Positions 10,804 to 62,333 of a stretch of DNA of 64,000 nt are shown here, piece by piece. The stretch spans positions 24,306,001 to 24,370,000 of the forward strand of contig OZ076409.1 in the NCBI GenBank assembly GCA_964187785.1, read 5' to 3'. This DNA is from Amphiscolops sp. MND2022. Its lineage: Eukaryota. The notes beneath the pieces were generated by a model, which was given only the letters and a program-made list of their open reading frames with translations, searched no databases and was not told the DNA's origin. A program made the position numbers and the translations under genes. The first letter of the stretch is position 1, and the number at the start of each line of letters is the position of its first letter.

Positions 10804-10838
10804 TTCTTCTCTTCTTGATTGAACTCAGTTCACAAAGT

Positions 10839-11082
10839 CACAATAGCCCAAACTCCCAGAGACACAATAGCCCAATCTCCCAGGGACACAGTAGCCGAAT
10901 CTCCCAGAGACACAATAGCCCAATCTCCCAGAGACACAGTAGCCCAATCTCCCAGAGACACAGTAGCTCAATCTCCCAGAGACACAATAGCCCAATCTCC
11001 CAGAGACACAGTAGCCCAATATCCCAGAGACACAGTAGCCCAATCTCCCAGAGACACAGTAGCCCAATCTCCCAGAGACACA
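10839..11082. repeat. 24-bp tandem array (~10 copies) in the element 2 5' leader
   Basis: Unit gagacacagtagcccaatctccca. Confidence 0.95.
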
Positions 11083-11133
11083 AATCAGAGACTCCAAGAT
11101 CCAGACCCTTGTACTTCTTGGGCAATCTTCTCA

Positions 11134-11218
11134 GTTGTCCACCAACGAGTCGTCCGGGTCGTCCACCAACGAGTTGTCCGGGTCGGCGGACCAACGAGTT
11201 GTCCGGGTCGGCGGACCA
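11134..11218 (-). promoter_or_regulatory. Tandemly repeated primer-binding site (tRNA-Tyr type)
   Basis: TGGTCCGCCGACCCGGAC starts 2 nt after the 5' LTR. Two exact 25-bp copies plus a variant (TGGTGGACGACCCGGAC) and a partial copy. The tRNA assignment rests on resemblance to the usual BEL TGGTCCTTCGAGCCGGA site. Confidence 0.8.
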
Positions 11219-11220
11219 AA

Positions 11221-12168
11221 TGTAACGGCTGCTTGCCCTTATCCTGCGCTGAGGCTTGACAAGCTTTACGCCGCCCTGATCCGTTGCTTAGTGCTGTGGA
11301 CCGTCACTAAACAAATCCTGGTTTTCTTGTTTAAAGGACTGTATCTTTTGACTGGTGGGTCCGATGTGACCCGTGGAATCTCCTGCGATTCCGCTTTGCA
11401 CTGATTTGGATCCGATGTGATCCTGCACACACTTCCCTCACAGTATCTTCACGCGCTCCGGCTCTCCAACTATGAGAGTAGCTACTTAGTCGCTCTGACT
11501 CTAGCGAAAAGTTGTGAAGATTGAGAAGTTGATTAATTAGTCTCGCGGTCCTGAGACCCAACTTGACTATAGCTATACAGTGGAGAAAATCTCTCTCTAA
11601 TAATGGTATACATATGGTTTACAATTCTACAGTAAATATAAGCAAATATCAGTTGAAATATGTTGTATAAATAAATGACATTTAAAGCATAAAATGAAGT
11701 TATTGACTAGTAAACAAAGAATGTGGTGGTTTTGGCATGTTGGTTAGGTGGGTTAGAAAGTATGTTTACACAATGTAAATATCATTAATTTCAACAGAGA
11801 TGAATTTCCTTCAAGGTCATATGAGAAAATCACATAATAATTAATATATCAAAATTGGGATTTCATTGGGTCCGACCTAGGTCACTTTGGGTGTTAATTG
11901 CTCGGAACCCAGGGGAGATACGGGGTAGGTTGTTAAGAGTGAAAAGTTAGTGTATCACCACCACTATATGTGTGCCAAGTTTCAAGGTGATTGAATCAGT
12001 GGTTTTCCGGGACGGGGGGGTGGTGTTTTTTTACATAGGGTCATTTTTGCTTAGACTTGTATTTTTCCAACTTAAATCTTGATAAAGTTTCTAAGTGTTT
12101 TGAGTTATAAGTTTCATCAGTCACGTTCGAGTTTGAGTTTCTGATCTCGCAATTGACTGGCGCCAACA
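11221..12168 (-). repeat. 5' LTR of element 2
   Basis: TGTTGG...GTTACA on minus; adjacent to the PBS and the TSD. Confidence 0.95.
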
Positions 12169-20144: not shown

Positions 20145-22707
20145 TGTCGCACGCATGGATAGATTTTACTATTTACTATTTCCTTTTTGTTCCCTTTTCC
20201 TTTCAAGGGGCTGTTCAGTTGTTATCAGTATTAGTCAGTTCAGCTTATGTAGCGTAGTGCAAATTACTTTCAGGTGGCTATTCTATTATTGATTGTAAAT
20301 GAGTAAGAAAGTCTCAAAGCTTACTCTGTGCAATAATAGAAAGGAAGTGCCTTGCGTGTACGTGCGAACAAAGGGAGTTGCGTGAATAAGTGCAAGGCAG
20401 TGTATGTAAATGAGTTATCTGAAAAGCGGAAAAGTATAGAAAGGAAATATGTTGAATTATATTACGTGAACGGACAATGGTACTAAGTAAAAATTTCTAG
20501 GCATCTCAGTGTCTATTCCATCTTTAGTTAAATCCAGCAGCGAAATAACAATTTACTTTACTTCAGCAGTAGATTGGAAGGATTTATTTCGACTTCGAGC
20601 AAAATAGCTTTATAAAATACATCAGAAACGATTAATATATATCAGAAAATTCGTAATAAAATTTACAGACTAAATTGTGAGCTTTTACACTTTCATAATG
20701 AAAATGCTTTATGATTAGCTCCAAATGAGAAATGGTTTTAGCCGGTGATAATTTAAACCAGCGAGTTTTAGTTTTTTTAAAGTCACTGCTCTGTTGGGTA
20801 GAGAGACAGCATTAGGACTTTGTATAAGACACAAACTCACTGGGTAGATGAGGTGAAATGATTTTGTAAGTACTAGTGTAACGCCAACCATTTATTTAGT
20901 ATTTTTCTAAGATATACTTTGAACAACCACTGAGTAAAATCAGTGGAACTTTTCTAAGATATATTTTAAACAACCACTGAGTAGAATCAGTGGAATTTTT
21001 CTAAGATATAAGTTAAACAACCACTGAGTAGAATCAATGGAATTTTTGTAAGTTATATTTTAAACGACCACTGAGTAGAATCAGTGGAATTTTTCTAAGA
21101 TATAATTTAAACAGCCACTGGGTAGAATCAGTGGAATTTTTCTAAGATATAATTTAAACAACCACTGAGCAGAATCAGTGGAATTTTTCTACGATATAAT
21201 TTAAACAACCACTGAGTAGAATCAGTGGAATTTTTTTGAGATATATTTTAAGCAATCACTGAGTAGAATCAGTTAAATTTTTCGAAGATGTAATTTAAAC
21301 AACCACTGAGTAGAATCAGTCGAATTTTTCTAAGATATAATTTAAACAACCACTGAGTAGAATCAGTGGAATTTTTCCAAAACATAATTTAAACAACCAC
21401 TGAGTAGAATCAGTGGAACTTTTCTAAGATATAATTTAAACAACCACTGAGTAGAATCAGTGGAATTCTCTAAAATATAATTTAAACAACCACTGAGTAG
21501 AATCAGTGGAACTTTTCTAAGATATAATTCAAACAACCACTGAGTAGATACAGTGGAATTTTTCTAAGATATAATTTAAACAACCATTGAGTAGAATCAG
21601 TGGAAGTTTTCTAAGATATAATTTAAACAACCACTGAGTAGAATCAGTGGAAATTTTCTAAGATATAATTTAAACAACCACTGAGTAGAATCAGTAGAAT
21701 TTTTCTAAGATATAATTCAAACAACCACTGAGTAGAATCAGTGAAATTTTACTAAGATAGAATTCAGTTAGGAAGGGGAGAATCAGAAATCTCCACAAAA
21801 AGAAACTAAGTTATTTTTTCACTCACCAGACCGGGGACTGTTGTCGGATTGAGGTGAATTCTCTAAGATAGAAAATTCAAGAAAGACGGATGTGACTTCG
21901 CAAATTTGAGAGCCAAAGCAAAAAAGGGGATGAAAGTAAGATAGAAGTTTTTAGTCCAAGGGGGAAATAATTCAAGAATTTAGCGGAGAGAAGATAAGTA
22001 GAGTTGGAGCAAGTTGAAGGGAAGAGAAGTAAAAGTGAGAAAGGGAGAGAGCTTTTTAGGTGTTGAAGCTCTGCCGGTTGGAGGGAAGAATGAAGCTCCA
22101 GCTTGTGCACGCCGTATAAAAACAGTTCAGCACTTCTACCGAAGTGCTTCATTGGCCTGTTTTTCGTTCAGCCAGTCAGAGCTTAGCATTAGATTTCGGA
22201 TCTCCGCGGTAAATAATAGAATTTTTCGTTTCTGTAATCCCGCGGTAGAAGAACCTTTTTTATCCCATTATTCTGCGGCCTTTTTATGAGTTTCAGCTGC
22301 CGCCCTACTTTAATAGTTATTTATCTTCAGCTTCCTCCTTCTCCAGGTTAGTTCAATTTCCTGCTTTGTTTATGCAGGTGTTTTTTAATCATAAACTACT
22401 CTGTAGCTCAAAGGAAATTGATTAGCTTTGTATTTTTGCAGGGGAATTTTTGATTAGAAACGGCTCTGAAGCCCTGGGTTGATAGTTGAGCTTTTTATTA
22501 AATCAGGTGTTTATAATCATAAACTGCGCGGTAGCACACAGAGAATTGATTAGCTTTGTATTTTTGCAGGGGAATTTTTGATTAGGAACGGAAGAGTATC
22601 CCTGGGATGTTTGTAGAGCTTTTTATTAAATCAGGTGTTTTTTGTTGAGCACTTTATTGTTGCAGTTGCATTTGTATTATTCATTAAGCGTTAGTCATAA
22701 CGCGACA
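20145..22707 (-). repeat. 3' LTR of element 4 (2563 bp)
   Basis: Direct repeat of 37208-39814, with an extra ~128-bp internal duplication at 22375-22631. Confidence 0.95.
20900..21760. repeat. 47-bp tandem array with palindromic core, 18 copies
   Basis: Unit aacaaCCACTGAgtagaaTCAGTGGaatttttctaagatataattta. Confidence 0.95.
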
Positions 22708-22814
22708 GCTCACCCCCCTGACAAAGAGAAAAGAGAATGCGGTATCTGGGGTAGGTCAGGAATGAAAATGGGGCCTCTTTAGCACTTGGGATTTTAAAGG
22801 GGGCTTCATTAAAT

Positions 22815-23804
22815 TTAATTGGAATTGTTGGAGTTGTTGTTTAAAAAGGCTTCCCTGAAGTTGACCAATAGTTTTGTGTGAGGGATGAAATCTTCTCGCA
22901 TGAGGTTAGGAAGAGTGTAGGTGCCGGCGTGGGTGTCGCCTTGGTTGTTCTTGTCAGAGTTGTTTGGGAAGTAGGTAGACCACTTGTTGTTTTTGTCTTT
23001 TTGATCTATGATGGAGATTTCTAATTGTCGGTCGAAAGGCCATGTTCGAGGGAGGGTGAAGTCGCTAAGATGGAGCTCACAGCAAATGGAGGAGTGGGTT
23101 CCCCAAAAGAGGTTTATCCCATATGGAAATAGTCTAAGGGATGTTTTGCAGCCTGCTAGGTGAGTGGTATAGATGGGGCTGGTGAAGCTACATTTGAAGT
23201 TGCTTAGTGGTTCATTCGGGAAGGTTTTTGCTTTTCGGTATAGCGTAGAAAATGCGGGAATCTGCCACAGGAAGGGTTCATTGTTTCTCCCATCGATGAA
23301 ATTAGTATTTCTGAGGAGGGAGCATTGGTATTTTATGGTTGCTTGTAAGTTGGATATTGTGGTCTCTAGTTGTAGACATCTAGTCTTTGCTTCTTCTGCC
23401 GAATTGTAGAGTTGTTTCACTTTGCCATCAATGTTCGTTTTAGGCTCTAAGGTTTCTGTTAATGAAAATGATTTCCAAAGGACCGGGGTTTCTAGTAGTT
23501 TTTCGTTTTGGCAACTTGATATGGTTGAGGTTTCTAATTCTGATATCCATTTGCTCAATCTTTCTATTCCCTCGAGAGTCTCTTGTTCTTCCGGGACATC
23601 TGGTTTCGATATGGGTGGCCAGTCGGGTGTAGTAATACGGGAAGAAGGATTATTTTTTGGGATAAAGGGCGTAGCATTAGGGTTTAGCCTATGATTCATT
23701 GTGCGGATATTGATCTTAGGGGGACAGTTAGTCTTTGTCCTTTGAGTGCAGGGTTCTCTATAGTGTATTCTTGTCTCTTGTTGTCCCAGAAAACGATGTT
23801 CCAT
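22815..23804 (-). CDS. Accessory protein: PAM2 motif + coiled coil + TRAF-type MATH domain (likely start 23699)
   Basis: LNPNATPFIP fits the PAM2 consensus. A heptad stretch (VKQLYNSAEEAKTRCLQLETTISNLQ) follows. FLWQIP.F, FTSPIYT...GCK.SLRLFPYG, GTHSSI, WPFDRQLEISIIDQ and FIPHTKL are colinear with TRAF-C motifs. Confidence 0.85.
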   Translation of the reverse strand: MEHRFLGQQETRIHYREPCTQRTKTNCPPKINIRTMNHRLNPNATPFIPKNNPSSRITTPDWPPISKPDVPEEQETLEGIERLSKWISELETSTISSCQNEKLLETPVLWKSFSLTETLEPKTNIDGKVKQLYNSAEEAKTRCLQLETTISNLQATIKYQCSLLRNTNFIDGRNNEPFLWQIPAFSTLYRKAKTFPNEPLSNFKCSFTSPIYTTHLAGCKTSLRLFPYGINLFWGTHSSICCELHLSDFTLPRTWPFDRQLEISIIDQKDKNNKWSTYFPNNSDKNNQGDTHAGTYTLPNLMREDFIPHTKLLVNFREAFLNNNSNNSN

Positions 23805-23903
23805 AATGAGAATTGGGGAAGTAGGGTATACTTTAAATCTGCATTGAACCTAGGCCTTTTAACATATCTGGCCCTTTTTGTATAGTATTCCCTTTTGTGT
23901 TGT

Positions 23904-24278
23904 TTATTTAGTGGTGCCTGGTCCGCTATCTCGTTGTTCCATTGATGGTGGTGTTTTCTGGGGAGGATTCTTTTTTATATTTTTTCCGCCGAATCGGGGT
24001 GGATGTTGGGTTGATGGTAAAGGTGCTACCTCTTCTGTGAACGACAGCGGGAAGGGGGGTCGCTCTGATGTAGTTGATGAGGGCGTTGTTGTATGTGCCC
24101 TTGGGGGTGGAGAAGGAACAGTTGAGTCTGGTGGGTCTAGGAGGAAGTTGATTGTTGTAGGGGATACTGGGGACAGCAGGTCTGATGGCGATAAGGGCTC
24201 AATTTCTAAGTCATCCTCTAAGTTAGGGTTAGGGTTGTCGTCGTCCAGGTTTGGTAGGTCGAAAATTGAGTCTAATTG
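23904..24278 (-). CDS. Putative spliced, acidic and Pro/Ser/Thr-rich accessory exon (124 aa, no 5' ATG)
   Basis: The open frame QLDSIFDLPNLDDDNP...GPGTTK* begins immediately after the acceptor-like TACTACTTTTAG. Confidence 0.45.
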   Translation of the reverse strand, partial: QLDSIFDLPNLDDDNPNPNLEDDLEIEPLSPSDLLSPVSPTTINFLLDPPDSTVPSPPPRAHTTTPSSTTSERPPFPLSFTEEVAPLPSTQHPPRFGGKNIKKNPPQKTPPSMEQRDSGPGTTK

Positions 24279-24314: not shown

Positions 24315-26453
24315 TTAAATTGGAGCTACGAAGCTCTGTACAGAGGGGTATAGTGATTCCTCTTTTTGTTTCAGATTTTGAAGTTCTACCGTTTTTATTT
24401 CGTCTTCCGTTTTTGTTCTTTCTTCAATGCTATCCTCGAGAGGGGCCCGCGCGGTGAATACGGAAGTTAAAACGGAGGTAAAGAAAAGATTGTACGAAGC
24501 ACAGAGCAAGGTTTTAGTGAAGCTCAGGGTATTACCAGTAAAGTGACGAAGTTCGAAATAGCGGAAGACTAGGACCGTGTTTTCTCTAACGAATTTAATA
24601 AAAAGAAAGGCGCCAAAATACGCGCCGCAGAGTTCGAGGACATACATATACTTCCGAAAGTTTCTAGGAATTGATTTTTGAAGTAGTCGGGTGATATCAT
24701 ACCGTCAACGTAAATATCGGTACGGGGTGCGTAATACGCAAATGATTCGGGTCCGCTATGGGCCATTGAAGGGATGATGAGTTCTCGTGAAAAGTTCTGG
24801 AGGGCATTTCGTGAAGCTGCGCTGATGAGGATGTTATCCCAAAATTCCGAGAGTTGTTCCGGCGTGTACATTCCTGCGTCTTGTGATCCAGGAAAGGATC
24901 TGGTAATCAGTGGTTGGATGTCCTTGGGTCCGGTGATAGCAGGTCGGTCACGATGTTCGGGTGAAGGAGTGAGGGTAAACCAGGAATCTTTGTCTTCCAT
25001 GTCCAGTTGGAAGAGGTTCTTAATGCGATCGCTGCAATTGTGCACGTTCGCATTAGGATAAGTCTGTCGGGTGATGGGGTCCACGAAGGCGACCACTCCT
25101 TTGTAGAAGATGGGTATGCGGTCGTAGCATTGGTTCATCGTGTGAAGAGTGGGATTCTGGGCAGTGGTAGAGCCATGCTAGGCTACCATCTGTGTTCAGG
25201 AACATTGAGCGATTTCCCGTGAGCATGTATCCGGCAAGTCGTGGGTTTTCCATGGAGAGCATCAAGATGGTGATGATTTGTGTTCGTTCTTGTTCACATT
25301 GAGCTTTCAATAGCTGGATTTCTGAAGCTTCAAGTAAGCGGGTGCTCTCAAAAAAGAGATAATCTAATTTTGTCCCTTGGTGGAGCTCGTAATCCACGTT
25401 AAGATAATGTGGTGTATTAGGGTTAGAGTCGCCGGGTCCTCTGAAGAGGTGGAGTCGGCCACTACCAGAACCATCGTCAGGTGAGTAATATTGAAGTTTA
25501 GATGTCTCGCCCATGGAGATGCCAAGTCTTCTGCCGGAGGTCATGTCAAAGCCACCAAGTTGGATTGAAACGTACAGGGATTCGTAGTTGGTCGAGTATA
25601 CATCGTCGGGTTTGTTGCAGTACTTTTGTGGTCTGTTGTAGACCTCGAAAAAAATTTTGGTAGTGGAATCGTTGCCGCTGACAATATAGTAGTTAGATCC
25701 GTGTTTGATCATGTTCACCATTTCTTTTCTGTGTACTGCAAGCACGCAATCATCAGGTTCTGCCCATGTGTATGCGTAGGGGTCCAGTGACGTCGTTTCA
25801 CAACCAAGTTGCTCCAAACGACAGGGAAGGATCATTTGAAATGGTGTGAGGACCTTTCCATCTCGGGTTTTGACCGATAACTCAGCGTCTTGAATGTGAG
25901 ATTCGAAAGTTTCGCGTTTGATCCATCCTCCTGTTTTGCACTCATTGCGGGTATCAGGGTCGCGTACCCCGTCCCAACTTTTTCCGTGTTTGGCGTTTCT
26001 CGTCTGTACTTGTTTCACTCCTTTCTTAAATCTAAGGAGTTGTCCATGGATTATGACTTCTTTTCCTTTACCCATTGCATTACAGGTTTCGGGGGACAAG
26101 GAAAGATCGCTGGTGATTCCGTTGTGTAGAATTGATATACTGGAGTGGTCGTGATGACCACAATGCCATTCTTCACTCTGATGTTTCACACGGCACATTG
26201 TGGCGTTGATAGTGCAGCGAAAGTGTTTAGTGTATAACGTTACGCTAGCACGACTTACTTCTAAGTTTTCTGGGGCCACATTGCATTGTTCTACTTGATT
26301 CAATGCGTAGAGCTTATTTTGGGTCATTTCGCCGCAGTCGAAATGAGTTACTCGCAATTTTTTAGCAACGCTAGCGAGGTTTGGCGTAGGGCGTTGTGAG
26401 ATCTCAACGGGCGCGTAATAGGCGCATAAAACGAGTAGGAAAAATAATTTCAT
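24315..26453 (-). pseudogene. Envelope glycoprotein, class III / chuvirus (Monjiviricetes) G-like, ~710 aa, two frameshifts (~25150, ~24645)
   Basis: Signal peptide MKLFFLLVLCAYYA; HFDC, HCGHHDHSS and CYDRIPIFY..FVDPITR motifs; many Cys; sequons (NAT, NDS, NRS, NCS); C-terminal hydrophobic anchor; located 3' of pol. Confidence 0.8.
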
Positions 26454-26512
26454 TTTTGAAATTCTGCAGTCTACGCAAAATCAATCAGGTGAAATCTTTT
26501 ATTCAAAGGTGT

Positions 26513-26850: not shown

Positions 26851-27195
26851 TCAGCTGTAATTGTCACTGATGAATTGCAGACTGGGAGAGGGTTTGTTTT
26901 TTCTTCTCGAGTCGATGAAGTCAATGAGTTTGTTGAGAAGGAAGAGTGTAAGAGGGTGAATGTGATTTAAGTATGCTATCTGTCTGTATTCCTTGAGGGA
27001 TTGAGCGAGAGCGGCAGCTTCTTGTGAGTCGGTGTCTACCGGGATGAGCCAGTGACCCGGTTGGTGTGGTCGAAGATTATCGATTTCTCTTTGGATCACA
27101 GGAGCGCTGTCCTTCCAAGCGATAGAGAGAATTTCTAAGAGGGTGTTCGTTTCAGGGTGGCGCCAGAGGAATTTGAGTTGAATCCTAAACATCAT
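26851..27195 (-). CDS. Orphan accessory ORF, 114 aa
   Basis: ATG-initiated; its start overlaps the stop of the preceding ORF. No recognised motif. Confidence 0.5.
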   Translation of the reverse strand: MMFRIQLKFLWRHPETNTLLEILSIAWKDSAPVIQREIDNLRPHQPGHWLIPVDTDSQEAAALAQSLKEYRQIAYLNHIHPLTLFLLNKLIDFIDSRRKNKPSPSLQFISDNYS

Positions 27196-27580
27196 AGGTG
27201 TCGACTAGGCTGTGAAGGTATTTGATTCTAACTTCTTCTTCGAAGGGGTTGGAGGTGAGAGTGATGTCCATAAAATAAACCAAGTCGTCGAAAGCCTTGT
27301 CTTTGAGGACGGCGGGGTGTTGGAGTATGTATTGCTTGAACGAAAGGAATTAGTAGGCGTATTCCTTGGACCCGAAGTGAATAGGGAAGAGGACTAGAGC
27401 TTCTTTGTCTTCTGGCGTGAGTATACGAACTTGAATCGCAGAGGTAGTGATCTCGTAGAAGATTGACTGTATTTCGTATTGGCCCTTGAGTTGTATGGGC
27501 GTCCAAGGAACAGGAGGTTGAAATTGGGTGTGGAAGTAGTAATTATTTCCGCGGAATACAGCTACTGCGGGAGAGGACAT
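27185..27580 (-). pseudogene. Orphan accessory ORF (~131 aa) with one in-frame stop at 27350
   Basis: MSSPAVAVFRGNNYY...EYAY*FLSFKQY...VDTYDV*. TATA-like TATATAA lies ~50 bp upstream. Confidence 0.5.
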
Positions 27581-28042
27581 CAAATGACTGATTTGGCTCT
27601 AGTGAAGACTTCGGTAGGGGTGTTGTTATATAGCAAGCTCTCCAATAGTGGGTAGATAGGTGATGCTGGCACACACGTGTAGGTTTCACTTTCTTCTTCT
27701 GCTATTGCTTAGGCTTGTATGATGATGTTCTGCGTTGAGGGTTCCTTCTGAATATCTGTAATTTGTGAGAGACGGTTGCCGATCTTGAAGGTTATGATCA
27801 TCTGTGTGTGATTTTGCCTCGTGATTTGTGTTCATCAAACATAGCAAATCTGAGAATGGAATCATCAGTTATTTTCATTGCGTTTGAGAACAGTCATATA
27901 ATAAGAATTATTAACACGACTTCATAGGAGTTCGTGGTTGGTTACCGAGAAATGAAGAGCAGATAATATATTGAATCTCGGAATACTAGGTAAGCAAGTA
28001 TAGACGTAATAGTTTTAAATCAATATATTTTTTTAGGTTTAC

Positions 28043-28663
28043 ATGACTTTATCAGTAGCTACTTTGCATTTAGTAATGAGCAGCAATAACACTAATAATC
28101 TTGCCCCTAGTGGGTCGTCGGGCGTTACGGCCTCTACTACATCTACTGTCGTCGTCTCTTCTTCGTCTGCTGCTGTTATGTCTTCCTCAGTAGTGTCTGT
28201 GGCCGGGCCTAGTCGCCCGGACACATCAGTACCAGTGAGTTCTGCCGCTCCGCCTGTTAGTCGTCTGGCCGGTAGGCTAATACCGGGTCATCTCAACAAC
28301 TACGACAGAGAGACATTTATGGATCTGTATGATTGGGGCGATGTCAGGCGACTAGAGGGATGGGTGGAGACTAATAGAGACACAAGGGGGGTTCGGGGTT
28401 ACATGGTTGTCCGGGCCCCCATCTCGGATGCTTTTGCATCGTTTTTGTTGCAGTTGTATGAGCGACCCTGGGAGTCAAGACTTCTGGCGGGGCAGGGGGA
28501 AGTTCTCCTGTTCCAGCTCAGGAGTTATATCCTGGGGTATTCGCGTTTAACTACTTATCAGAGGGGCCAGTTTCGTCGACTGTGGCCCGCCTGGACCAAC
28601 GAGGAGAGGCGTAGCCAGCTAGAGAAGTTGGCTAGTTTGGGGGGCTTTGTAGAGCTGGAGTAG
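28043..28663 (+). CDS. Antisense accessory ORF, 206 aa (Ser/Val-rich N-terminus, globular-looking C-terminus)
   Basis: Intact ORF opposite to the element sense strand, preceded by a GTAAGC...TTTTAG mini-intron (27990-28036) and TATAATA at ~27897. Confidence 0.65.
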   Translation: MTLSVATLHLVMSSNNTNNLAPSGSSGVTASTTSTVVVSSSSAAVMSSSVVSVAGPSRPDTSVPVSSAAPPVSRLAGRLIPGHLNNYDRETFMDLYDWGDVRRLEGWVETNRDTRGVRGYMVVRAPISDAFASFLLQLYERPWESRLLAGQGEVLLFQLRSYILGYSRLTTYQRGQFRRLWPAWTNEERRSQLEKLASLGGFVELE

Positions 28664-28813
28664 GCCCGTATGGCTACTCCACTCAACCTGTTTTTACTTG
28701 CTTCTGTCTTCGTCTGCTATTTCATAAAGTATACTACGGGGTTGCACAAAGGATAACCAAATATAATTATAATATAGATATACAATAGTCTTGCATCATG
28801 AAATTGCGGCCGG

Positions 28814-29224
28814 CTAGGAGCTAGGTGAGGAGATAGTGGAGCAGCAGAATAGGTCCTTTTGGGTATTAGGTAGAGAAGGTTGTAGGTCAGGTATTAGGGT
28901 AGGCATGTAGGATAGGAGTTCTTCTAGGATAGAGTCGTGGTGTGTGACTGCATAGTATGCGAGGTGTTGATATAAAAGAACAAAGGTCTTAGATTCTGGG
29001 CGTATAGGTATGTTTGATTTTCGGGGCGTTGGTTGTTTATTATAGCTCGGGTCTGGGTCTTTAGAGTAGAAGCAAATCCTAACTAGCTTGTTTGTGTAGG
29101 TCCAGTAGATTTTTGTGATTGTTACATTGAGAATGCCTAAGGACTGAAGTTCTCGTGGAACTTGCCAGGGCAAATTTAGATATACTTTATGGCATGGCAT
29201 GGTAAGGTTATTCTTTGTAACCAA
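28814..29224 (-). CDS. Orphan accessory ORF after integrase, ~128-136 aa
   Basis: Open frame directly downstream of the pol C-terminal region. No recognised motif. Confidence 0.45.
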   Translation of the reverse strand: MVTKNNLTMPCHKVYLNLPWQVPRELQSLGILNVTITKIYWTYTNKLVRICFYSKDPDPSYNKQPTPRKSNIPIRPESKTFVLLYQHLAYYAVTHHDSILEELLSYMPTLIPDLQPSLPNTQKDLFCCSTISSPSS

Positions 29225-29348
29225 TTCGAGTCCTTTCGCGGAGGACGGACTGTTGTGCCGGTTGATTGGGCTGTGCTCGTTGATAGCGTGGATTTCTTTC
29301 TATATGGCGGGCAACAACTCTTCTTAATTCTTGCAAAGGAGTCGGTGA

Positions 29349-32300
29349 TTAAGTTGAAGACGCCTGGTTGTTAGTTAGTCGTGCTGGAGTTGGATGACGT
29401 TGTGTCAACGTTAAAATAGGGGTTGCGGTGTCTCGAGGATGTGAGGTCGAAGGCTGATCGGGAGTCTGTGGGGTTGCCAACAACTGATTTTCTGGAGAGA
29501 TGATACCAGAGTCTGTGCTCAGTGGGGTCTGCTCGTTTTTGCGGATAAGTATTTGATCTTGTTGGGTCCGAACTGGCAATATGCAGAGATCTCCGAGTGT
29601 TTGTGCTTCTGAAACATTAAGTTGTTCAATTCTTCCTTTGACGAAATTGTTATAAAAATCTTTGTCTCCACGATGGGGAGTTGTGTATTCTTCGATAAGA
29701 GGGGGGAGTGTTTCTATCAGGTGATTTCTATGTACAGTTCGGAGATTCTCGGGATTTCGATCTTCTGTTATTTGGTAAGTTGTGTTGGTGATTCTCTTGG
29801 TAACTGTAAAGGGTCCTAATCTTAGTTGCTGAAGTTTTTGACTTTTAGAGAGATCCTTTCGATGGTTTTCTAGCAGGACCTTTTGTCCTATGTTCAGGTG
29901 GTTTCCGAGTTTAAATCTGTTTCTGTAGGCGTGTGATCGAGCTTTTTATTGTCTGCAATTTTCATATGTGGATGAGTAGATCTTTTTGAAGACTGTTTCT
30001 CTTTCCAGCAAGTTTTGTGATAGTTGTGGTCGTAATAGTCCATTTACTTGGTTTCCACTATGACGGTGTGGAAGTAGTCCGTTACAGAACTGTGATTTAC
30101 AGTTCTTGTTTTTATTCCTATATAGTCCCAGCTTCAGACTCATAGATATTTGTGGTTTGTTGCAGAACACTATCTCGTAGGGGGTCTTTCCTGTTGTGTA
30201 GTTAACGCTAGTGTTGTGGGCGAATGCAAATTTAGCGGCTAGTTGGGCCCAGTTGTTTCCTGATTCATTTAAGATGTTTCTCCAGTATCTTGCGATGTGT
30301 TGGTTTTGCGTCTCGACTTTGCAATTTGTCCAGGGTGAGTGTGCAGTTCTTGGTCGAAGAGTAATGCCAAACTCTTTCGTCCAGTTGACGAACTCAGTGT
30401 TTACAAAAGCTGTTCCTCTATCATGTATGATGGATTGCGGTATCCCATAGTGAATTATCCATTTTTCCATTGCGTTGATTGTTGATTGTGCTCCTGTGTC
30501 TTGGACCGGATATGCCATTAAATAACGCGAGAATGCGTCAATGATGAGAAGGCAGTGTGAATTTCTACGACTGGGAGGGTTGAGTGGTCCCTTGTGATCG
30601 ATATGAACTGTTCTGAATACTTGAGTTTCGATTTCACAGTCTTCCAGTGGGACTTCGTTATTTCTTCTTTGTTTGGATTTGTTAGACTGGCAGCTAACGC
30701 AGTCTTGTGTGAGGGCACAGATCCAGTCGTGCATTCCGGGCCAGTAGTAGAGTCTTTTAGCATTTAGGTAAGTTTTCTCAGCCCCCATATGGCCGCCCAG
30801 GTCGTTGTAATGTCCCATACGGAAGCAAGTTAGAAATGGAGAGAGAGGTAGGCAGATTCTCAGGTTTTCGTCTGCCGGGTCGTCAGTTGGCTCGTTGTAG
30901 CAGAGGAGATTTCCCTGTTCTTCTATAGTTAGTCGGTCAAATTCCTGAAAGTATCGCATGAGGACTTTCGAGTGTTGTAACTCTGGTGACTTTGGCGTAG
31001 GCTTGTTTCCTGTCTTCATCCATTGTCGGACCACACTGAGGACTGGGTCATTAATTTGTTCTTGTAAAATTGTTGTGACGTTTAGCTCCGCTTCTTTGGA
31101 AATCTTATCGAGTTGGCCTATGAGTTCTCGAGTTGATGTCTTTTGTTTTCCTGTAGTGGTTTTAAGGAGCTCGTAATTTTCAATTGCCTTATCATTTTCG
31201 GAGGTACATTGTTTGAGTGTCGGGGAACTCGTATTAGGCCCATAATTTGTTTCGTTCACTTCTTGACGTTCGTCATCTGCGAGGGCTTTGTCGTCTGCGT
31301 CGCTGTTAACCGAGCTGTAAGTATTTTGTGATATATCGGAGGTGCTTTCTCGCGTGCCAGATCTGATTCGTAGCTCTTCGTAATTTCTAATTTCTTTTCC
31401 GGCGTCAAAACAACTTTGCGCCGATTCAATCTTCGGCAGGTTAGGTTCCTCGTAGACATTGTTGACTGTGAAGTTATTACCGTCATTTTGTAGGTGAAGG
31501 ATTTTCCGTTCATCCCCCTTTTCGTACAATATAGGGTAGAAGTCATTCTTTGAAGTTTCGTCGTTTTCCTCGTGTTTGATTTTGTTGTGAACTTGAGTCC
31601 CGTGCTCGTCGAAGAAGTGTATGTCGTTGGGTAGGATCTTGTGGCTAAGTTGGTGTTTCTTGTGTTCTTCGATTGAGACATTTCGGCTGAGTATATCGGG
31701 GAAGGCTAAATTGCTTCCCGGCGTCCATATTATCTTTAGATTGGGAAACTTGGAAATAATCACTTGGTACCTAAAGAATCGCGGTGAAACCTGTCCTTTT
31801 TGTCCCCAGAGATAAAGAATTGGTTTATGGTCACAGTATAGGTAGATCGGGACATCCAATGATATAGTGCTCGTATGTTTGTAGTGCTGAGACTATTCCA
31901 CATAGTTCTCTATGTAGTGTGGACATCTTTTGTTCTTCTTTTGCGAAAATTCTGGAATCGAAAGAGATGATCCGTTTTCCTTCTGGAAATTGTTGTATGA
32001 GTATACATCCTGTCCCTACGTGTGACGAGTCTACGTGTATATGAAATGGGTATTTCGTTGAAGGTACTACAAGAACCGTGTCTTCGCAGATTCTCTTCTT
32101 TATTTCTTGGAAGAGGTCTTCGTGTTCTTGTTTCCAACAAAAGTTTGTATCTTTCTTGGCAGCTCGTAGAATGGTCGACTATAGACATGTAGATTCTTGA
32201 TGTAACAGCTATAAAATCCCAGAGCCCTAGAAGCTCTTTACCTCAGTTTTCGTTCTTGGCGATTTAAGATTGTGAAGATCCCTGACTCGTTTAACTACAG

Positions 32301-34728
32301 GTTGTATTCCTTCTGCTGCAATTACATGTCCCAGGAACTTGACTTTTCGCGAGAAGAATAGTGTTTTGTCGGGCGCTGCCTTGCGTCCTGCTTTCCGTAG
32401 TAGGTCATGGTATTCTTGGATCACTGTGAACATCTCTTGTTTGTTTTTGGCCTGCATTAACGTGTCGTCTATGTAGGTAATTGCGTGTTTCTTCTTGATG
32501 AGGTTTCGCCTTGGTTCGAAATGGATTGTCATCATACGGCTGAAGAAGCTGGGTAATCCTTTAAGTCCTCTGGTAAATGTATATTGTTTACCGCCAATTA
32601 TGAAGCTAGTGAGCTTCTGTGTGGGCTCGTCTAGTGGGACTTGGTGAAAAGCGCAAGAGAGATCGCTTACTGAGAATATTTTTCCGTTGATGAGCGTCAT
32701 TATGGTTTGGATTGGTTCCAAGGGCCAGGAGTAGTTTGTCAGATCAGTCACTGAATTCAGGTATCTTGCGTCTATGATCAGCTTGACGTAATCATGTTTT
32801 GGTTGTAAGATGATGAGGTTTACGAATAGAGATCCATTTCGTCGTCATCGCCCATCTCTCTTATGATGTCAGCCTCTTTGAGTTGTGTTAGTAGTTTTTC
32901 TAACTTTTCTCGTAAGTGTAGTGGTACTTTACTAGGTCTCTGTCTCTTCAGAATTGCTCCCCGTTCTAGTTTAATGTTGAATTTCTGTCTAGTTTTCCCA
33001 ACATCGAACTTGTGTTGTGAAAATACATCTCTAGCATCCATCAGTAGGTCTATGAGGAGAACAAGTTCTTCGTCTGTGAGGTCCGAGTAGCGAAAGTCGA
33101 ATTCTTTGATGTATTGAACTGCTTCTTTATTCTGATATTGAAGATAGTATTCAATGAGTCGTTCGTTGTCTTCTTTGGGCCTAAATATCTTGAATTGTTC
33201 GTCACAAGGTGGTTGGCAGGACCTTGCATCTTTAGTAAAGTCAGTTTCCAGTTCTCTGTGCTTCAAGTGAAATTCCTCTGGAAATTGTTGTATTTCATCT
33301 TCTACTGCATTTTCAGGGTCTCCTCTGGTAGTCATTGCATAGACATCTAGCTCGTTTCTGGTATAGATTCGGAGCTGCATTTCTGTGTAGGCAAAGACGT
33401 CTTGAATAATTTGCGTAACATCTTGCCATTGAAAGTCCTCTAGTTCTGAGGCTTCTCGTAACATAAAAACAGTCTTGATATTATTCAATTTGGCGTGGGC
33501 TTTTAGTGTTTTCAGCGATTGGGCTAAGATTTGTGGGTCGATTTTGTCTTTTGATTTAGCCTTAGTGATTAAGACGTATATAAATCCCCTTAGAGTTGTA
33601 TCCCAGAGGGTATTGTGTCGCCTTTTTGAGGTTTCTGTTTTGCGCAAGAGTCTTTCAATGAAGGTATATTCGTTAAAATTACTTTAGAGAAGCTTTTGGC
33701 TGGTTTTAGGTCAGCCGGAACAAAGATAGGTCAGCCGGATAGGTCAGCCGGATAGGTCAGCCGGATAGGTCAGCCGGAACAATAGAGTCTGGTCTGTTGA
33801 GTATTGTTGTAGAGTTTCCTCCTTCTATTCTGATGCAATCGTTAAGATCTTGTGAAGGGATAGTAGCGTGTAGTAAAAAGCAATCGTTGTATTCTTCATT
33901 TTCGCTTAAAATGGTGTAAGCGAGTTCGGTAGGATTCCTAATCTGATTATTTGGGATTTCTTTGTCAATGACGTCTAGCATAGAGTATCCAATAGTTCCT
34001 TTAACTAGTGTGATTGTATGGTTCTTGTTGTTTTCCATAACAATTGGCAAAGTCTTCTCAAACCGTGTACAAAGGACGTTTGTGAAGTTGAGTCCTGTAG
34101 AAACTGCCTTTCTGTTTGGAAGGAATGTAGATCCGGGAGGGAAGGAATTTTTCGCGTTTTCGAAGGCAAATTTGTAGCATCTTGTTGTTTTCGGCTCAAT
34201 GAACATGGAGTGAGGGATTTTGAATGTTAATATTTGCGAAACATAGGGGTATACTTTGTTTAGTTGAAGGCTACCATAGCAGAAGGTATTTAGAGGTCTC
34301 TTGAGCTCTATGTCGGGGAGGTCGAAATGTATTTTGTTGATCTGCTCTTGGCAGAAATTCATTCCAAGAAAGTTTTGTGTCTTCATCTCGGTGATCCAGA
34401 CTGTCAGAGGGAAGTTATGTTGGCCGTCGGAGTCATAATAGAGTCTTAATGGAATGTATCCCATCATAGGGTTGATTTGACCAGAGTTGTTACGAGTTGT
34501 GTTGTTGCTCCCGCTGAGTTCGAGGTCTTGTTGAAATTGGCAAACTTCTCTAAATGTCTTATAGTTGATGATTGAAGATGTTGCCCCAGTGTCAAGTAGA
34601 AATTCGATTTCCAAGCCACTATCTTTTTGTGAGTCTTCGGCAGCAAAATAATAAAGATTAAGATTAAATTTTAGTGGGGCACTGCTGCTACTTTTATTTT
34701 TCGGAGACCTTAGTAGTTTAAAGGACAA
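29349..34728 (-). pseudogene. Gypsy pol (PR - macrodomain - RT - RNase H - IN) with multiple frameshifts and stops
   Basis: LLDTGA; SDLSCAFHQV and YIDD; VDSS, CDHKPI and PDILSR; GGHMG...CVSC; HIDHKGP; HDRGTAF; GPF motif at ~29810. Confidence 0.93.
33362..33810 (-). other. TARG1/OARD1-like macrodomain within pol
   Basis: FIYVLITK.K.KDK....LAQSLKTLKAHAKLNNIKTVFM.R...LE.FQWQDV.QIIQDVF..T.MQLRIY parallels the TARG1 pattern YIYYLITK...LQKSLEAMKSHC...MPRIGCGLD.LQW.NV..MIEEVF..T.IKITVY. Confidence 0.8.
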
Positions 34729-34862
34729 AAATCGGCTACTGAGTTCACTGAGTAGTCAGTTTCTAAGAATTGTACTGTGTTGGATCTTCCCACGTCGTTA
34801 GTTTTTGGGAATCTTTGCTCGTAAGACTGAGTAGGGGTGTTGGGTCTTTCGTTTCTGTTTTG

Positions 34863-36166
34863 TTATTGTCTCTGAAAAACTGACTTTTTCCTTGGTGGAA
34901 AGGGTTGTATGTTGCGATTAAAAGGGTTAGGCTGGTCTCTGTTGAAGTTAAAGGGAGATCTAGCTCTCTGTGGTCCTGGAGAAATGCTTCTGGGTCTGTT
35001 AGAATTATTGGGAAAAGGTCTTCTAACCTCTTGCGAAAATCTCTGGTTACCGGAGCTGAATCTAGTATTTGTAGATCTGCGTTCTGGGTTAAAGTTTCTG
35101 TTCTGAGATCTGTCAAATCGGTTCCATGAAGGGGTTGCTTGCATGGCTCCCGCAAGTGCCAGTTGATGGGCAACCGCCATATTTTTTCGGATCTTTGAAT
35201 CGGGTAGTCTTGTCTGAAATCTTGAGCCATGCCCAGGTCCAGTTCTTTTGTTGTAATCGTTGGTGAATATTATTCTTCTCTCTGCATTCCTTCGTTTTGA
35301 ACCTTCTTGACTTCCTCATCTCTCATCTTTTTTCTGCACCAGTTAGGTGTGTGCCCATTTGTTCTGCAGTAGCTACAGAATCGAGTGGCCATTCTTCGTC
35401 CTGTAGCATTAGGGTCTACTGTTTTCTCTACTGCGTTGATAGTATTATTCATCTGTTCCTTGATTTGTAGTTTAATTCCCTTTAGGTCGTCTCGCATTTC
35501 TTGTATGAGTGGGTCTTCGTGTGACTCTCCGCCAGTTAGGGCGGTAGTTACAGTGTAGGAAAGGTCTTTGTTTATTACTGCTTGTGAAAATTGCTCCCAG
35601 GTTGCATTCGGGTGGTCCATCAGATATTCGTGTGCCTTTTCTCTCAGCTTTGGAGGTCTTAGGCCTCTCAGGGAGTAGTCAATGCACCTCTGTCTTCTTT
35701 GTTTGTCTTGAGTTGTCCTTTCAGCGTCTCTATTGTTCTTTGCGACTCCGGCTAGGTCATCTGGCCATCCTTTTCCAACTACTATTTTAATTCTGTGTAG
35801 GAAGTTCTTTATTTCTTCTCCATCTCGTCTGATGACATGTTCGGCTTCCATTCTGTGTCTAAATTTGTTTCTGCCATCTGCGAATCGTGTGATGAACCTT
35901 TCTCTGATTTCTGCCCAAGTGTTAGCGTCTGTGATGCTGGTCTCGAACCACTCCGCTGCGGGTCCTCTTAATAGTGTAGCAAAGTAGGATTTTCTTCTGA
36001 AGTTGTAGTCATCAAGTGCTGGTCCGTTGGCTGGGGTATCACCATGAGAAAACCGGAACTTCTTTTCAATGAGCTGTATAAATTGTTCAGGATCTTGATC
36101 TGGGTCGGTTCCTGTGAATTGGTCTCGGCCGAAGTCTGGATAAGCCAAGTAATTTTGCGCAGCCAT
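34863..36166 (-). pseudogene. Gypsy gag; intact to 35270, then a frameshifted Arg/Ser/Asn-rich tail
   Basis: FTG.DP.QDPEQFI, LLRGPAAEWF, W.EIRERFITRF and the CCHC knuckle CSYCRTNGHTPNWC. Confidence 0.9.
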
Positions 36167-37207
36167 TGTAAGCTGTTGAAAATATTAGAGAAAGAAAATG
36201 TAGCAACGAATAATAAATTAAAGATTCGATTAGGTAGGATACTCCAGGTCTCTGTAAATAACCACAAACGACTAAGGTAAAACACGCTCTTGCAAGAGTT
36301 CTAAAGATAATAAGAGCTAGGCAGGTCTGGCTTTGCATATACTCAATAGTATGCAAAAAAAATTTTAAGATCTCACCTCTCAGCTTAGGAGACGTTAGTC
36401 CTCCGGGTTTAATACTTCAATCCTAAAATAATAGGGGATACTTACAAATCCCGCTAACTTTAAATGATTAACAGAAAGGGCAGTTCGGGGTATACCAATC
36501 CTCCGATTTAACCAAAAAAAATGTGGAGAATACAATCGGTTTCAAAAGGTACTCAATTCGCTAGTCTAGCCTTTCAATGGCTTTTGTAGAAGTAATACAA
36601 CAAACAAACAGAGGGAGGCACTCTCGTCCTCAGGATTAAGTAGCGAGGGGCCAAGATCACTATCATGCAAACACTAGGGTACTATCACTAGAAATCTTAG
36701 AATTCTAGGTTTCCACCTTGGAATGCTACACAGGTTCCGGGACACCCACTGGGCTCATGGCCTTCAATCAGCCTCCGAAGAGACCTAGGCGGGCTTTTCC
36801 TTAATATGTGTCCGTCTGGACTTGAGTGTACATCCCAACTGTAGGTTTAGATTCAGTGTTAGAAAGCAGTTTCATTCTTGTTTTAGGACCGAATGTAGTC
36901 TAGCATTTCTGCAAAAGTAAGTTAGCTCTAACCTTTTGGGGATTGGGAGGACTAATTTGAGTAGTGCACAGTCTCTTCCTAAAGCTTTTAAGCTGGAGAG
37001 ATTCTGTTGGAGTTTTTACTAGCAATTCTATGAATTATAAAGACCAAGGAAGCCACATGTTGGGGCAGTAGGAGAAAAAAGAAAATCAGAAGTAATGTTA
37101 AGAGAAACAGGTAGTAAACCCTAACTTCTTAGAGTAGGGATTCTAACAGATAGCTCATTTATTTCTCTACTAAGAGTAAAAAGGGTGCCTCACTGGTCGC
37201 ACCAGTT

Positions 37208-39814
37208 TGTCGCACGCATGGATAGATTTTACTATTTACTATTTCCTTTTTGTTCCCTTTTCCTTTCAAGGGGCTGTTCAGTTGTTATCAGTATTAGTCA
37301 GTTCAGCTTATGTAGCGTAGTGCAAATTACTTTCAGGTGGCTATTCTATTATTGATTGTAAATGAGTAAGAAAGTCTCAAAGCTTACTCCGTGCAATACT
37401 AGAAAGGAAGTGCCTTGCGTGTACGTGCGAACAAAGGGAGTTGCGTGAATAAGTGCAAGGCAGTGTATGTAAATGAGTTATCTGAAAAACGGAAAAGTAT
37501 AGAAAGGAAAAATGTTGAATTATATCACGTGAACGGACAATAGTATTAAGTAAAATTTTCTAGGCATCTCAGTGTCTATTCCATCTTTAGTTAAATCCAG
37601 CAGCGAAATAACTATTTACTTTACTTCAGCAGTAGATTGGAAGGATTTGTTTCGACTTCGAGCAAAGTAGCTTCATAAAATACATCAGAAACCATTAATA
37701 TATATCAGAAAATTCGTAATAAAACCTACAGACTAAATTGTGAGCTTCTACACTTTCAAAATGAAATTGCTTTATGATTAGCTCCAAATGAGAAATGGTT
37801 TTAGCCGGTGATAATTTAAACCAGCGAGTTTTAAGTTTTTAAAGTCACTGCTCTGTTGGGTAGAGAGACAGCATTAGGACTTTGTATAAGACACAAACTT
37901 ACTGGGTAGATAAGGTGAAATGATTTTGTAAGTACTAGTGTAACGCCAACCATTTATTTAGTATTTTTCTAAGATATAAGTTGAACCACCACTGAGTAGA
38001 ATCAGTGGAACTTATCTAAGATATATTTTAAACAACCACTGAGTAGAATCAGTGGAATTTTTCTAAGATATTATTTAAACAACCACCGAGTAGAATCAAT
38101 GGACTTTTTCTAAGATATGTTTTAAACGACCACTGAGTAGAATCAGTGGAATTTTTCTAAGATATAATTAATTCAGCCACTGGGTAGAATCAGTGGAATT
38201 TTTCTAAGATATAATTTAAACAACCACTGAGTAGAATCAGTGGAATTTATCTAAGATATAATTTGAACAACCACTGAGTAGAATCAGTGGAATTTTTTTG
38301 AGATATATTTTAAACAATCACTGATTAGAATCAGTGAAATTTTTCTAAGATATAATTTAAACAACCACTGAGTAGAATCAGTGGAACTTTTCTAAGATAT
38401 AATTTAAACAACCACTGAGTAGGATCAATGGAATTTTTCTAAGATATATTTTAAACGACCACTGAGTAGAATCATTGGAATTTTTCTAAGATATAATTTA
38501 AACAGCCACTGAGTAGAATCAGTAGAATTTTTGTAAAATATATTATAAACAACCACTGAGTAGAATCAGTGGAATTTTTCTAAGATATAATTTAAACAAC
38601 CACTGAGTAGAATCAGTGGAATTTTTTTAGATAAATTTTAAACAACCACTGAGTAGAATCAGTGAAAGTTTTCTAAGATATAATTTAAACAACCACTGTG
38701 TAGAATCAGTGGACTTTTTCTAAGATATAATTTAAACAACCACTGAGTAGAATCAGTGGAATTTTTCTAAAATATAATTTAAACAACCACTGAGTAGAAT
38801 CAGTGGAATTTTTCTAAGATATAATTTAAACAACCACTGAGTAGAATCAGTGGAATTTTTCTAAGATATAATTTAAACAACCACTGAGTAGAATCAGTGG
38901 AATTTTTCTAAGATATAATTTAAACAATCACTGAGTAGAATCAGTTGAGTTTTTCTAAGATATATTTTAAACAACCACTGAGTAGAATCAGTGAAATTTT
39001 ACTAAGATAGAATTTAGTTAGAAAGGGGAGAATCAGAAATCTCCACAAAAAGAAACTAAGTTGTTTTTTCACTCACCAGACCAGGGACTGTTCTCGGATT
39101 GAGGTGAATTCTCTAAGATAGAAAATTCAAGAAAGACGGATGTGACTTCGCAAATTTGAGAGCCAAATCAAAAAAGGGGATGAAAGTAAGAGAAAGTAAG
39201 AGAGAAAGTAATTTAGCGGAGAGAAGATAAGTAGAGTTGGAGCAAGTTGAAGGGAAGAGAAGTAGAAGTGAGAAAGGGAGAGAGCTTTTTAGGTGTTGAA
39301 GCTCTGCCGGTTGGAGGGAAGAATGAAGCTCCAGCTTGTGCACGCCGTATAAAAACAGTTCAGCACTTCTGCCGAAGTGCTTCATTGGCCTGTTTTTCGT
39401 TCAGCCAATCAGAGCTTACCATTAGATTTCGGATCTCCGCGGTAATTAATAGATTTTTTTCGTTTGTGCAATCCCGCGGTAGAAGAAACTTCTTTTATCC
39501 CATTATTCTGCGGCCTTTTTATGAGTTTCAGCTGCCGCCCTACTTTATTAGTTATTTATCTTCAGCTTCCTCCTTCTCCAGGTTAGTTCAATTTCCTGCT
39601 TTGTTTATGCAGGTGTTTTTTAATCATAAACTACTCTGTAGCTCAAAGGAAATTGATTAGCTTTGTATTTTTGCAGGGGAATTTTTGATTAGAAACGGCT
39701 CTGAAGCCCTGGGATGATAGTTGAGCTTTTTATTAAATCAGGTGTTTTTTGTTGAGCACTATATTGTTGCAGTTGCATTTGTATTATTGATTAAGCGTTA
39801 GTCATAACGCGACA
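37208..39814 (-). repeat. 5' LTR of element 4 (2607 bp)
   Basis: Followed on minus, after 3 nt, by the PBS at 37188-37204. Confidence 0.95.
37960..39010. repeat. 47-bp tandem array with palindromic core, 22 copies
   Basis: Same unit as 20900-21760. Confidence 0.95.
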
Positions 39815-53664: not shown

Positions 53665-53736
53665 ACCTGTCCGGGAATCGAACCCAAGACCTTATGGTTC
53701 GAAAGCTAGCACACTAACCATTCGGCCATAGCGCCT
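53665..53736 (-). ncRNA. tRNA-like Pol III module in the 3' LTR of element 7
   Basis: TGGCCGAATGG (A box)...GGTTCGATTCC (B box) at tRNA spacing; TCG at the anticodon position, but the stems do not pair. Confidence 0.7.
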
Positions 53737-53921
53737 TGAAAAGGAGCGGATAATATTTGCTTTTATTCTTATCGCTGAATTAATTGCTTGCCAACATCCT
53801 CCGGGCCCAAGACGATGTGGAGAAACGAATCAATCAAACAAAAACTTTTTTTACATGTTACATGAAATATAATAATGATAATAATGTAAATAATGTACGG
53901 TGAAATGAAGCAAAAACAAAA

Positions 53922-60330: not shown

Positions 60331-60420
60331 CTTTGTCGTGATCTTTTGCAAGAGAATGAATCAAGGTAGCAAGGAAAGTGTTAAATCAAATAGATCGAGG
60401 AGCAACTTCTTCGACAGCGT

Positions 60421-60856: not shown

Positions 60857-60876
60857 TAAAGAGGGATGGAGGGGGT

Positions 60877-62316: not shown

Positions 62317-62333
62317 CCTCTCTATGGCCACCA
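62317..62333 (-). promoter_or_regulatory. Primer-binding site of element 7 (probably tRNA-Ile type)
   Basis: TGG-T-GGCCATA-GAGAG-G fits the CCA + discriminator + acceptor + T-stem geometry of a tRNA 3' end. Confidence 0.8.

Follow-up and report, generated by a model that had tools for sequence, protein, structure and literature searches.

A RING-less TRAF gene apparently captured from the host and kept by an env-bearing Ty3/gypsy lineage of an acoel

Introduction

How did a TRAF-like gene come to lie next to the 3' LTR of a retroelement in the genome of Amphiscolops sp. MND2022, and what might it do there? Large DNA viruses typically carry signalling modulators taken from their hosts, whereas such genes are seldom seen in invertebrate LTR elements, and genes captured and retained by parasites tend to mark what limits those parasites. 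A 2026 study described acoels as lacking the Toll and complement pathways and asked what replaces them (PMC12849515).

The window analysed here (the whole 64,000-nucleotide stretch from contig OZ076409.1) holds a minus-strand reading frame which an earlier note, made from the letters alone, had interpreted as a captured host gene: an intronless coiled coil plus MATH domain, without RING or zinc fingers, acting as a dominant-negative decoy in TNFR/TLR-NF-kB signalling. We compared this frame and the element around it with other copies in the genome, with host TRAF genes and with related sequences from other assemblies.

Results

Layout of the window element

By its sequence features the window element is a Ty3/gypsy LTR element with env, of an errantivirus-like lineage. 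It spans ~19.7 kb in the order 5' LTR, gag, PR-RT-RNaseH-IN, class III fusion env, a small ORF, the TRAF ORF, polypurine tract (PPT) and 3' LTR (Table 1). The hallmarks of env-bearing Ty3/gypsy elements were all found: TG...CA LTRs, a target duplication, a PBS-like stretch and a PPT, together with gag followed by PR-RT-RNaseH-IN and then by a fusion glycoprotein. Since the LTRs are ~97% identical outside a tandem array and gag, pol and env are all broken, the window copy is old. The position of the TRAF gene between env and the PPT agrees with the earlier description, with the addition of an extra ORF between env and TRAF.

Table 1. Features of the window element, in window coordinates
Feature	Positions	Strand	Remark
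3' LTR (TG...CA)	20145..22707	-	contains 47-bp tandem array; 4-bp target duplication outside
Polypurine tract	22708..22719	-	adjoins 3' LTR
TRAF accessory ORF from conserved ATG	22815..23699	-	294 aa in window copy; last strand out of frame
Frame-changing break in last beta-strand	22820..22827	-	window copy against 4/4 sisters compared
MATH/TRAF-C domain	22866..23273	-	PF22486, 36.6 bits, residues 193-328 of 344-aa frame
Coiled-coil-like stretch, TRAF-N position	23337..23420	-	crude heptad score; alignment to TRAF1 stalk
PAM2-like motif L-N-P-x-A-x-x-F-x-P	23658..23687	-	TRAF N-terminus; sub-threshold Pfam match in sisters
Upstream accessory ORF, two pieces in window copy	23696..24278	-	stop overlaps TRAF ATG (ATGA)
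env, broken, class III (Monjiviricetes-type) fusion glycoprotein	24315..26480	-	PF24664 Monjiviricetes_fusion
pol-env interval with conserved small ORFs	26851..29299	.	includes antisense ORF 28037-28663
pol, broken, Ty3/gypsy order PR-RT-RNaseH-IN	29349..34755	-	Pfam
gag, broken	34863..36184	-	PF03732, 24.0 against 24.1 bits
PBS-like stretch starting TGG	37188..37204	-	3 nt after 5' LTR
5' LTR	37208..39814	-	96.8-97.1% identical to 3' LTR outside array

Several other features accompany this layout. The 47-bp tandem array occurs within both LTRs (20760-21900 and 37836-39016). The antisense (plus-strand) ORF of ~208 aa between pol and env has homologues in other copies of the window's clade (clade I, defined below), namely at 92% in copy L061 and 44% in copy L063. 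An insert between protease and RT (32820-33683), found in all clades fetched, seems to resemble a macro domain; Pfam gave no macro-domain match in it. The window also holds two BEL/Pao elements (3528-12167 and 53415-62712); in the first of them a 2133-aa ORF is unbroken and the LTRs are 99% identical.

The TRAF ORF: domains, start and break

The minus-strand frame 23849-22815 runs for 344 aa from stop to stop in the ORF listing of the window. It matched the Pfam model MATH_2 (PF22486) above the cut-off (36.6 vs 32 bits, E 6e-9) and fell marginally under that of TRAF-mep_MATH (27.3 vs 27.4 bits), while unbroken sister copies exceeded the cut-offs of both models. Its closest PDB matches were TRAF4/5/1/2/3, and a family profile searched against PDB returned TRAF1-6 (E 2e-23); the claimed MATH domain is thus confirmed by profile and by sequence relatives in PDB. 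No Pfam match to RING or zf-TRAF appeared in the window's ORF or in the sister element copies scanned, again as claimed. N-terminal to MATH lies a heptad-like stretch (residues 94-121 counted from the 23699 start, by a crude script score), and the pre-MATH stretch aligns to the TRAF1 stalk in the PDB comparison. Word-index protein searches with the TRAF ORF returned close copies only (12 proteins), no relative was found among IMG/VR viral contigs (114 pattern matches, 0 confirmed), and the Atlas placed it in TRAF clusters (0.92, with a low recognition score).

Compared with the sisters (4/4), the window copy has frame-changing gaps at ~22827-22820 and ~22766 and its last strand is therefore out of frame, while unbroken sisters read in frame through this strand. 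A frameshift near 22830 had been correctly foreseen; however, the hexapeptide TIPIKF then taken as the last strand is partly out-of-frame sequence, and the second frame, said to end at the PPT, continues beyond it into the LTR. The start proposed at 23804 is probably wrong and was rejected because it lies inside the 3' end of the upstream ORF; the conserved ATG at 23699 is the likely start. Judged across its copies, the TRAF gene appears to be functional at the family level and broken in the window copy.

Conservation of the env-TRAF cassette

TRAF searches of the window's genome (1.07 Gb), in which 150 of 467 and 150 of 440 candidates were scored, yielded at least 265 distinct TRAF-matching loci after removal of 16 second-piece rows; at least three of these are host genes, and many copies are partial. 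The element copies split into clades I (the window's), II, III and IV, between which identity was 20-38% for MATH and 77-87% for RT-RNaseH.

Linkage to env was nearly complete in both directions. An env lay upstream at 19/20 TRAF-centred loci and at all seven repeat loci of a further set. Conversely, of the 7100 env candidates in the genome the 150 best, each with an identity of 69% or more to the query, were inspected, and 149 of them were closely followed by TRAF. In 140 a TRAF match was listed no more than 3.5 kb downstream, all seven others fetched (7/7) carried TRAF and two had an N-terminal match; in the last env match TRAF lay 14 kb away.

Selection on naturally unbroken ORFs was estimated by the Nei-Gojobori method. 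The dN/dS ratio was 0.03-0.21 for MATH (11 of 13 pairs computable) and 0.16-0.32 for the N-terminal part (9 of 13), and in the same analysis 0.02-0.06 for env and 0.04-0.13 for pol, the pairs sharing branches (hence not independent) and several being near saturation. These ratios show, at the sequence level, purifying selection on the TRAF gene of the element lineage. They also bear on whether the gene is a functionless host fragment copied along as a passenger, as the broken window copy and the many partial copies might suggest: dN/dS far under 1 largely refutes this reading, frames that stay open across such divergent MATH domains and the 149/150 env linkage also speak against it, and we consider it hardly credible. 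Conservation of the ORF among element copies, on which the earlier interpretation depended, accordingly held in clades I-IV.

The same order was found outside the window's genome. A 2.5-kb metagenome contig (L144) carries the end of env (60% identical), the upstream ORF (42%) and a TRAF gene with the same N-terminal motif as clades I and II. Its TRAF is 85% identical to protein P0090, whose best match in the window's genome is far lower (34-44%), so that the cassette is not confined to that genome. The env tree, with ((I,II),L144) set apart from III and IV, is compatible with the MATH tree and with co-descent. Thus the comparisons show a cassette of env, upstream ORF, TRAF and PPT fixed in four divergent element clades.

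Two side observations concern rearrangement. Between clade I subfamilies L051, L063 and L069 the synonymous distance in MATH is 1.4-1.9 vs 0.2-0.8 in env/pol of the same pairs, an excess hinting that 3' modules may have been exchanged between elements. Predicted proteins P0145 and P0003, which fuse env pieces to TRAF sequence, are probably internal deletions of element copies.

The upstream ORF had no Pfam match and no useful Atlas match. All four clades and L144 share, at the C-terminus of this ORF, a conserved basic domain of ~70 aa. In 41/41 clade I/II junction rows, several of which duplicate a copy already included, the stop of the upstream ORF and the TRAF ATG overlap (ATGA); in clades III and IV the first TRAF ATG lies 5-40 nt past the first base of the upstream stop. 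Such stop-start overlaps are familiar from viral termination-reinitiation, and we infer that the TRAF ORF of clades I and II may be translated in this way.

A host family of RING-less TRAFs as donor

The genome holds a single-copy host TRAF gene with GT-AG introns (G000:C3:90.87 Mb) and a paralogue at C3:25.70 Mb, both with an intron at an identical site and phase near the MATH C-terminus. This intron is common to the two paralogues and to a further element family (clade V, below) and is missing from clades I-IV, where the sequence is continuous, which indicates capture from spliced RNA and agrees with the ORF having been called intronless. Directly upstream of the host RING-less TRAF gene lie a Pao element and a Polinton-like element (L120:8147-L143).

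Similarity to the host gene fades from clade III to clade I. The host coiled-coil exon matched the clade III N-terminus at 50% over 64 aa (E 2e-18), P0090 at 37.5% over 80 aa and clade II weakly; between the host N-terminal exon and clade I there was no detectable similarity, and clade I MATH is 31.5% identical to the host gene. In MATH trees of 44 rows with nine canonical-type TRAFs and of 29 rows with seven, element copies, the host family and its relatives fell on one side (100/100) against canonical-type TRAFs, the outgroup being a haphazard sample that includes one MATH exon of the window's genome, in the 44-row tree only. Sequence comparison thus shows that the element TRAF derives from the RING-less TRAF family of the host. 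In the trees its rows lie outside the crown formed by the host paralogues (91/93, not starred), and a single capture was not rejected (p-AU 0.36), with long branches that may distort the tree. We infer one capture, long ago, from spliced mRNA. The idea of a captured host gene kept by the element is therefore strongly supported: the donor family is found, introns are absent, selection is purifying, env linkage is near-complete, and the tree with host TRAFs joins element copies to the RING-less family.

The plan of the host family is one zinc-finger remnant, coiled coils and MATH. The first coding exon of the host gene has an ATG followed by one TRAF zinc-finger remnant; upstream of this ATG lies a CCAAT box and no pyrimidine-rich acceptor. 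Because the frame 5' of the ATG is open for at least 50 codons, the gene start rests on homology: the full-length relatives P0182 (474 aa) and XP_075250303.1 (482 aa) begin at the equivalent place, the latter (LOC142342694 of the acoel Convolutriloba macropyga) being the only named relative. Neither had a RING or zf-TRAF match, while controls were zf-TRAF-positive (4/4). Therefore the donor family has a TRAF1-like plan, of which the element lost only the finger remnant. Loss of RING at capture was rejected: with a donor already RING-less, RING loss predates capture, and the absence of RING is inherited and not a truncation that makes a decoy. The N-terminal RING and zinc fingers that mark a canonical E3-ligase TRAF (TRAF2-6 type) are missing from the element copies, and the RING also from the donor family.

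Which pathway could the element TRAF affect?

The donor's plan bears directly on whether the element TRAF is a conventional TRAF that was truncated and now blocks TNFR/TLR-NF-kB signalling as a dominant negative, the reading of the earlier note. The TRAF-C identity and the lack of RING fit this proposal, and conventional TRAF signalling may exist in the genome, given a host TRAF with a zinc-finger exon (C10:42.09 Mb) and 29 TIR_2 matches. However, the donor was RING-less before capture, the element copies stand apart from canonical TRAFs (100/100), and acoels are reported to lack TLR, MyD88, IRAK and NF-kB, with an acoel-specific response suggested instead (PMC12849515; the words "TRAF" and "TNF" are absent from its main text). 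NF-kB is thus an unlikely target and an NF-kB decoy very improbable; the target is more likely whatever the host RING-less TRAFs do. Of the immune-decoy idea, interference with some host TRAF pathway remains our best reading and the NF-kB dominant negative is not supported.

Domain searches of the genome relate to this question. Those for NF-kB (PF00554) and TNFR (PF00020) were blank but uninformative, their controls being silent; the Rel search also missed the NFAT-type Rel domains, which are reported in all acoels examined (PMC12849515). TIR_2 gave 29 matches and BIR two. Several of the TIR_2 matches lie in long open frames of 400-670 aa, and it is possible that TIR_2 proteins are partners of RING-less TRAFs in a genome that would lack TLRs. 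The MATH exon of the C10:42.09 Mb TRAF was not found along the 30 kb followed, and this gene was therefore left out of the trees.

A donor that is a RING-less adaptor also means that its copy need not be inhibitory. The element TRAF could then activate host signalling as a gain-of-function adaptor, promoting carrier-cell survival or a timed death that aids spread. The iridovirus TRAF protein ORF111L promotes caspase-8 apoptosis and yet has a RING domain (PMC3352826), so that it speaks on both sides; BIR genes are present in the genome (two matches). We rate this reading as improbable, above the NF-kB proposal.

Further captures of the RING-less TRAF family

In clade V, a second family with many copies, a TRAF belonging to the donor family is flanked by long inverted repeats, which reach ~2.5 kb in the copies seen and are 88-99% identical. 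Within the stretches fetched, env and pol were absent at all seven clade V loci, whereby the notion that every MATH repeat of the genome belongs to an env element was rejected. Clade V retains a short intron at the shared site (3/3 read), which marks a capture at the DNA level. Its copies are L132, L134-L136 and L138-L140 (e.g. G000:C1:103.77 Mb), with Polinton-like fragments nearby in L133. A clade II ORF between pol and env (L031:877-1563) is related to a clade V inverted-repeat ORF (L140:1758-2360) at 24% over 164 aa (E 4e-14); by eye the clade II ORF resembles a degenerate MATH fold, and Pfam gave no match.

A further intronless TRAF-family ORF (P0062), which falls within the host crown of the MATH trees, lies on metagenome contig L145 beside a BIR-RING (IAP-like) gene, Hsp70, a kinase and two more MATH ORFs. 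By its gene content L145 looks like a large DNA virus. The stretch L145:9437-16041 is gene-dense and intronless, with three MATH ORFs and an endonuclease/exonuclease/phosphatase-family ORF.

Receptor groove and N-terminal motif

TRAF1/2/3/5 bind receptors through hot spots that include an R/Y polar pocket and a serine finger (PMC6125299). Clades III and IV retain the host's G-E/P-Y/F-D and C-F-x-R/K-P stretches. Clades I and II keep the core W, S-P, P-Y-G, W-P-F and F-I positions, and both of their groove stretches (G-E-Y-D and F-x-R-P) are replaced. Measured against the hot spots, the window clade keeps the Arg and has lost the Tyr position and the serine-finger/F-x-R-P stretch; the acoel RING-less family itself has no serine finger in the hot-spot stretch. 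With G-E-Y-D and F-x-R-P lost, clade I may no longer engage the host pathway.

The TRAF of clades I, II and L144/P0090 opens with a motif, L-N-P-x-A-x-x-F-x-P, that resembles PAM2, the ligand of the MLLE domain of poly(A)-binding protein (PMC9753129). Two sisters scored under the Pfam cut-off of 20 for PAM2 (PF07145), with 15.4 bits (E 0.014) and 13.1, and the same scan reported no PAM2 match for clade I sister L051. The residues are retained through synonymous changes in 7/7 copies shown; the pattern occurs in 12 of the 171 proteins collected, in none of the host-type proteins checked, and clades III and IV do not have it. Two MLLE matches were found in the genome. We treat the binding of poly(A)-binding protein by this motif as a lead, not a result.

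These features raise the alternative that the captured domain serves the element's own machinery, as a trimeric adaptor which, by way of this motif, would link poly(A)-binding protein to the RNA or the particles of the element, or else as a partner of the Env tail or of the upstream-ORF product. Several observations favour it: i) the motif is shared by clades I, II and the L144 cassette, which comes from a different assembly; ii) it is absent from the host-type proteins checked, in a genome with MLLE domains; iii) the groove is remodelled in the very clades that bear it; and iv) the TRAF ATG overlaps the upstream stop in every clade I/II row, some of them duplicate copies. On the other hand, the PAM2 match is sub-threshold, selection maintains the gene in clades III and IV in the absence of the motif, and the host family was also captured by a non-LTR multi-copy element and by a virus-like contig without env. 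A role in the element's own machinery is unlikely on balance, though a more serious contender than activation of host signalling.

Discussion

We lean slightly towards the reading that the element TRAF is a mimic of the host RING-less TRAF which alters defence or cell-death signalling. Cells with an active element would produce the protein, and in clades I and II its translation would probably depend on stop-start coupling to the upstream ORF. It would trimerise through coiled coil and MATH, and then enter host RING-less TRAF complexes or take their partners, with a damped defence or cell-death response other than TLR/NF-kB as the outcome. Two analogies favour this reading: planarian Burro elements combine MATH_TRAF_C with BIR and BCL2-like domains (PMC6431247), and on the virus-like contig L145 the TRAF has an IAP-like gene as its neighbour. 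The clades may differ in how they do so: clades III and IV, in which the groove motifs of the donor persist, might be competitors for its ligands, whereas the remodelled groove and PAM2-like tail of clades I and II make it more likely that these poison or redirect complexes than that they bind the old ligand.

A bolder and more tentative proposal, one we think possible and would not bet on, is that RING-less TRAFs form the core node of an undescribed acoel defence or death pathway free of TLR and NF-kB, that mobile DNA of three unrelated types took them up on separate occasions (the env retroelement via mRNA, an intron-keeping inverted-repeat DNA element and a large DNA virus), and that the window clade was rebuilt as a TRAF tethered to poly(A)-binding protein. 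If so, the window clade would link signalling interference to translation control. Repeated capture names the RING-less TRAF family as a concrete candidate for the acoel defence pathway, and one genome shows donor, RNA route, selection and fixed env link together.

In the literature searched (Repbase, supplements and most subscription journals being outside its scope) no description of the acoel TRAF-carrying family was found. The closest and only precedent found is the planarian Burro/GYPSM1 group of giant gypsy elements, which carry MATH_TRAF_C with BIR and BCL2-like domains, as a domain annotation without a traced donor (PMC6431247). Burro shares with the window element a Ty3/gypsy LTR framework, MATH_TRAF_C and an env related to mononegavirus fusion proteins, and in Dugesia tigrina the domain even forms a separate accessory ORF (PMC6431247). 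It differs in that the domain is either part of a ~4,900-aa polyprotein or precedes it, accompanied by BIR, BCL2-like and ankyrin domains, and in that env sits between gag and pol (PMC6431247); in the window element env is a separate ORF after pol, and the element ORFs scanned with Pfam had no BIR or BCL2 match. The donor is traced for the window element, and Burro was compared by description, not by sequence.

Other systems share parts of this arrangement. Env-carrying metazoan Ty3/gypsy errantiviruses of invertebrates have the same gag-pol-env layout with a class III (HSV/gB-type) fusogen (PMC13524379, the main text of which has 0 occurrences of "TRAF", "MATH" or "acoel"). ISKNV ORF111L is likewise a virus-encoded coiled coil plus MATH from a host TRAF, but it belongs to a large DNA virus, keeps its RING and is pro-apoptotic through TRADD (PMC3352826). 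Mammalian TRAF1, the sole RING-less mammalian TRAF, has the domain plan of the host donor family (PMC3697994); this likeness is one of plan, with no orthology claimed and TRAF1 absent from the MATH trees, and TRAF1 keeps three receptor hot spots (PMC6125299), of which the window clade has lost more than the acoel family. Convolutriloba macropyga XP_075250303.1 and XP_075250305.1 are named members of the RING-less host family behind the element gene, and differ from the element copy in being cellular, with longer N-terminal coiled coils and a zinc-finger remnant. Thus MATH-carrying gypsy elements are already known from planarians (PMC6431247), and what is new is that the 3' cassette stands alone, that its RING-less donor is traced, that capture was repeated and that a PAM2-like motif was gained.
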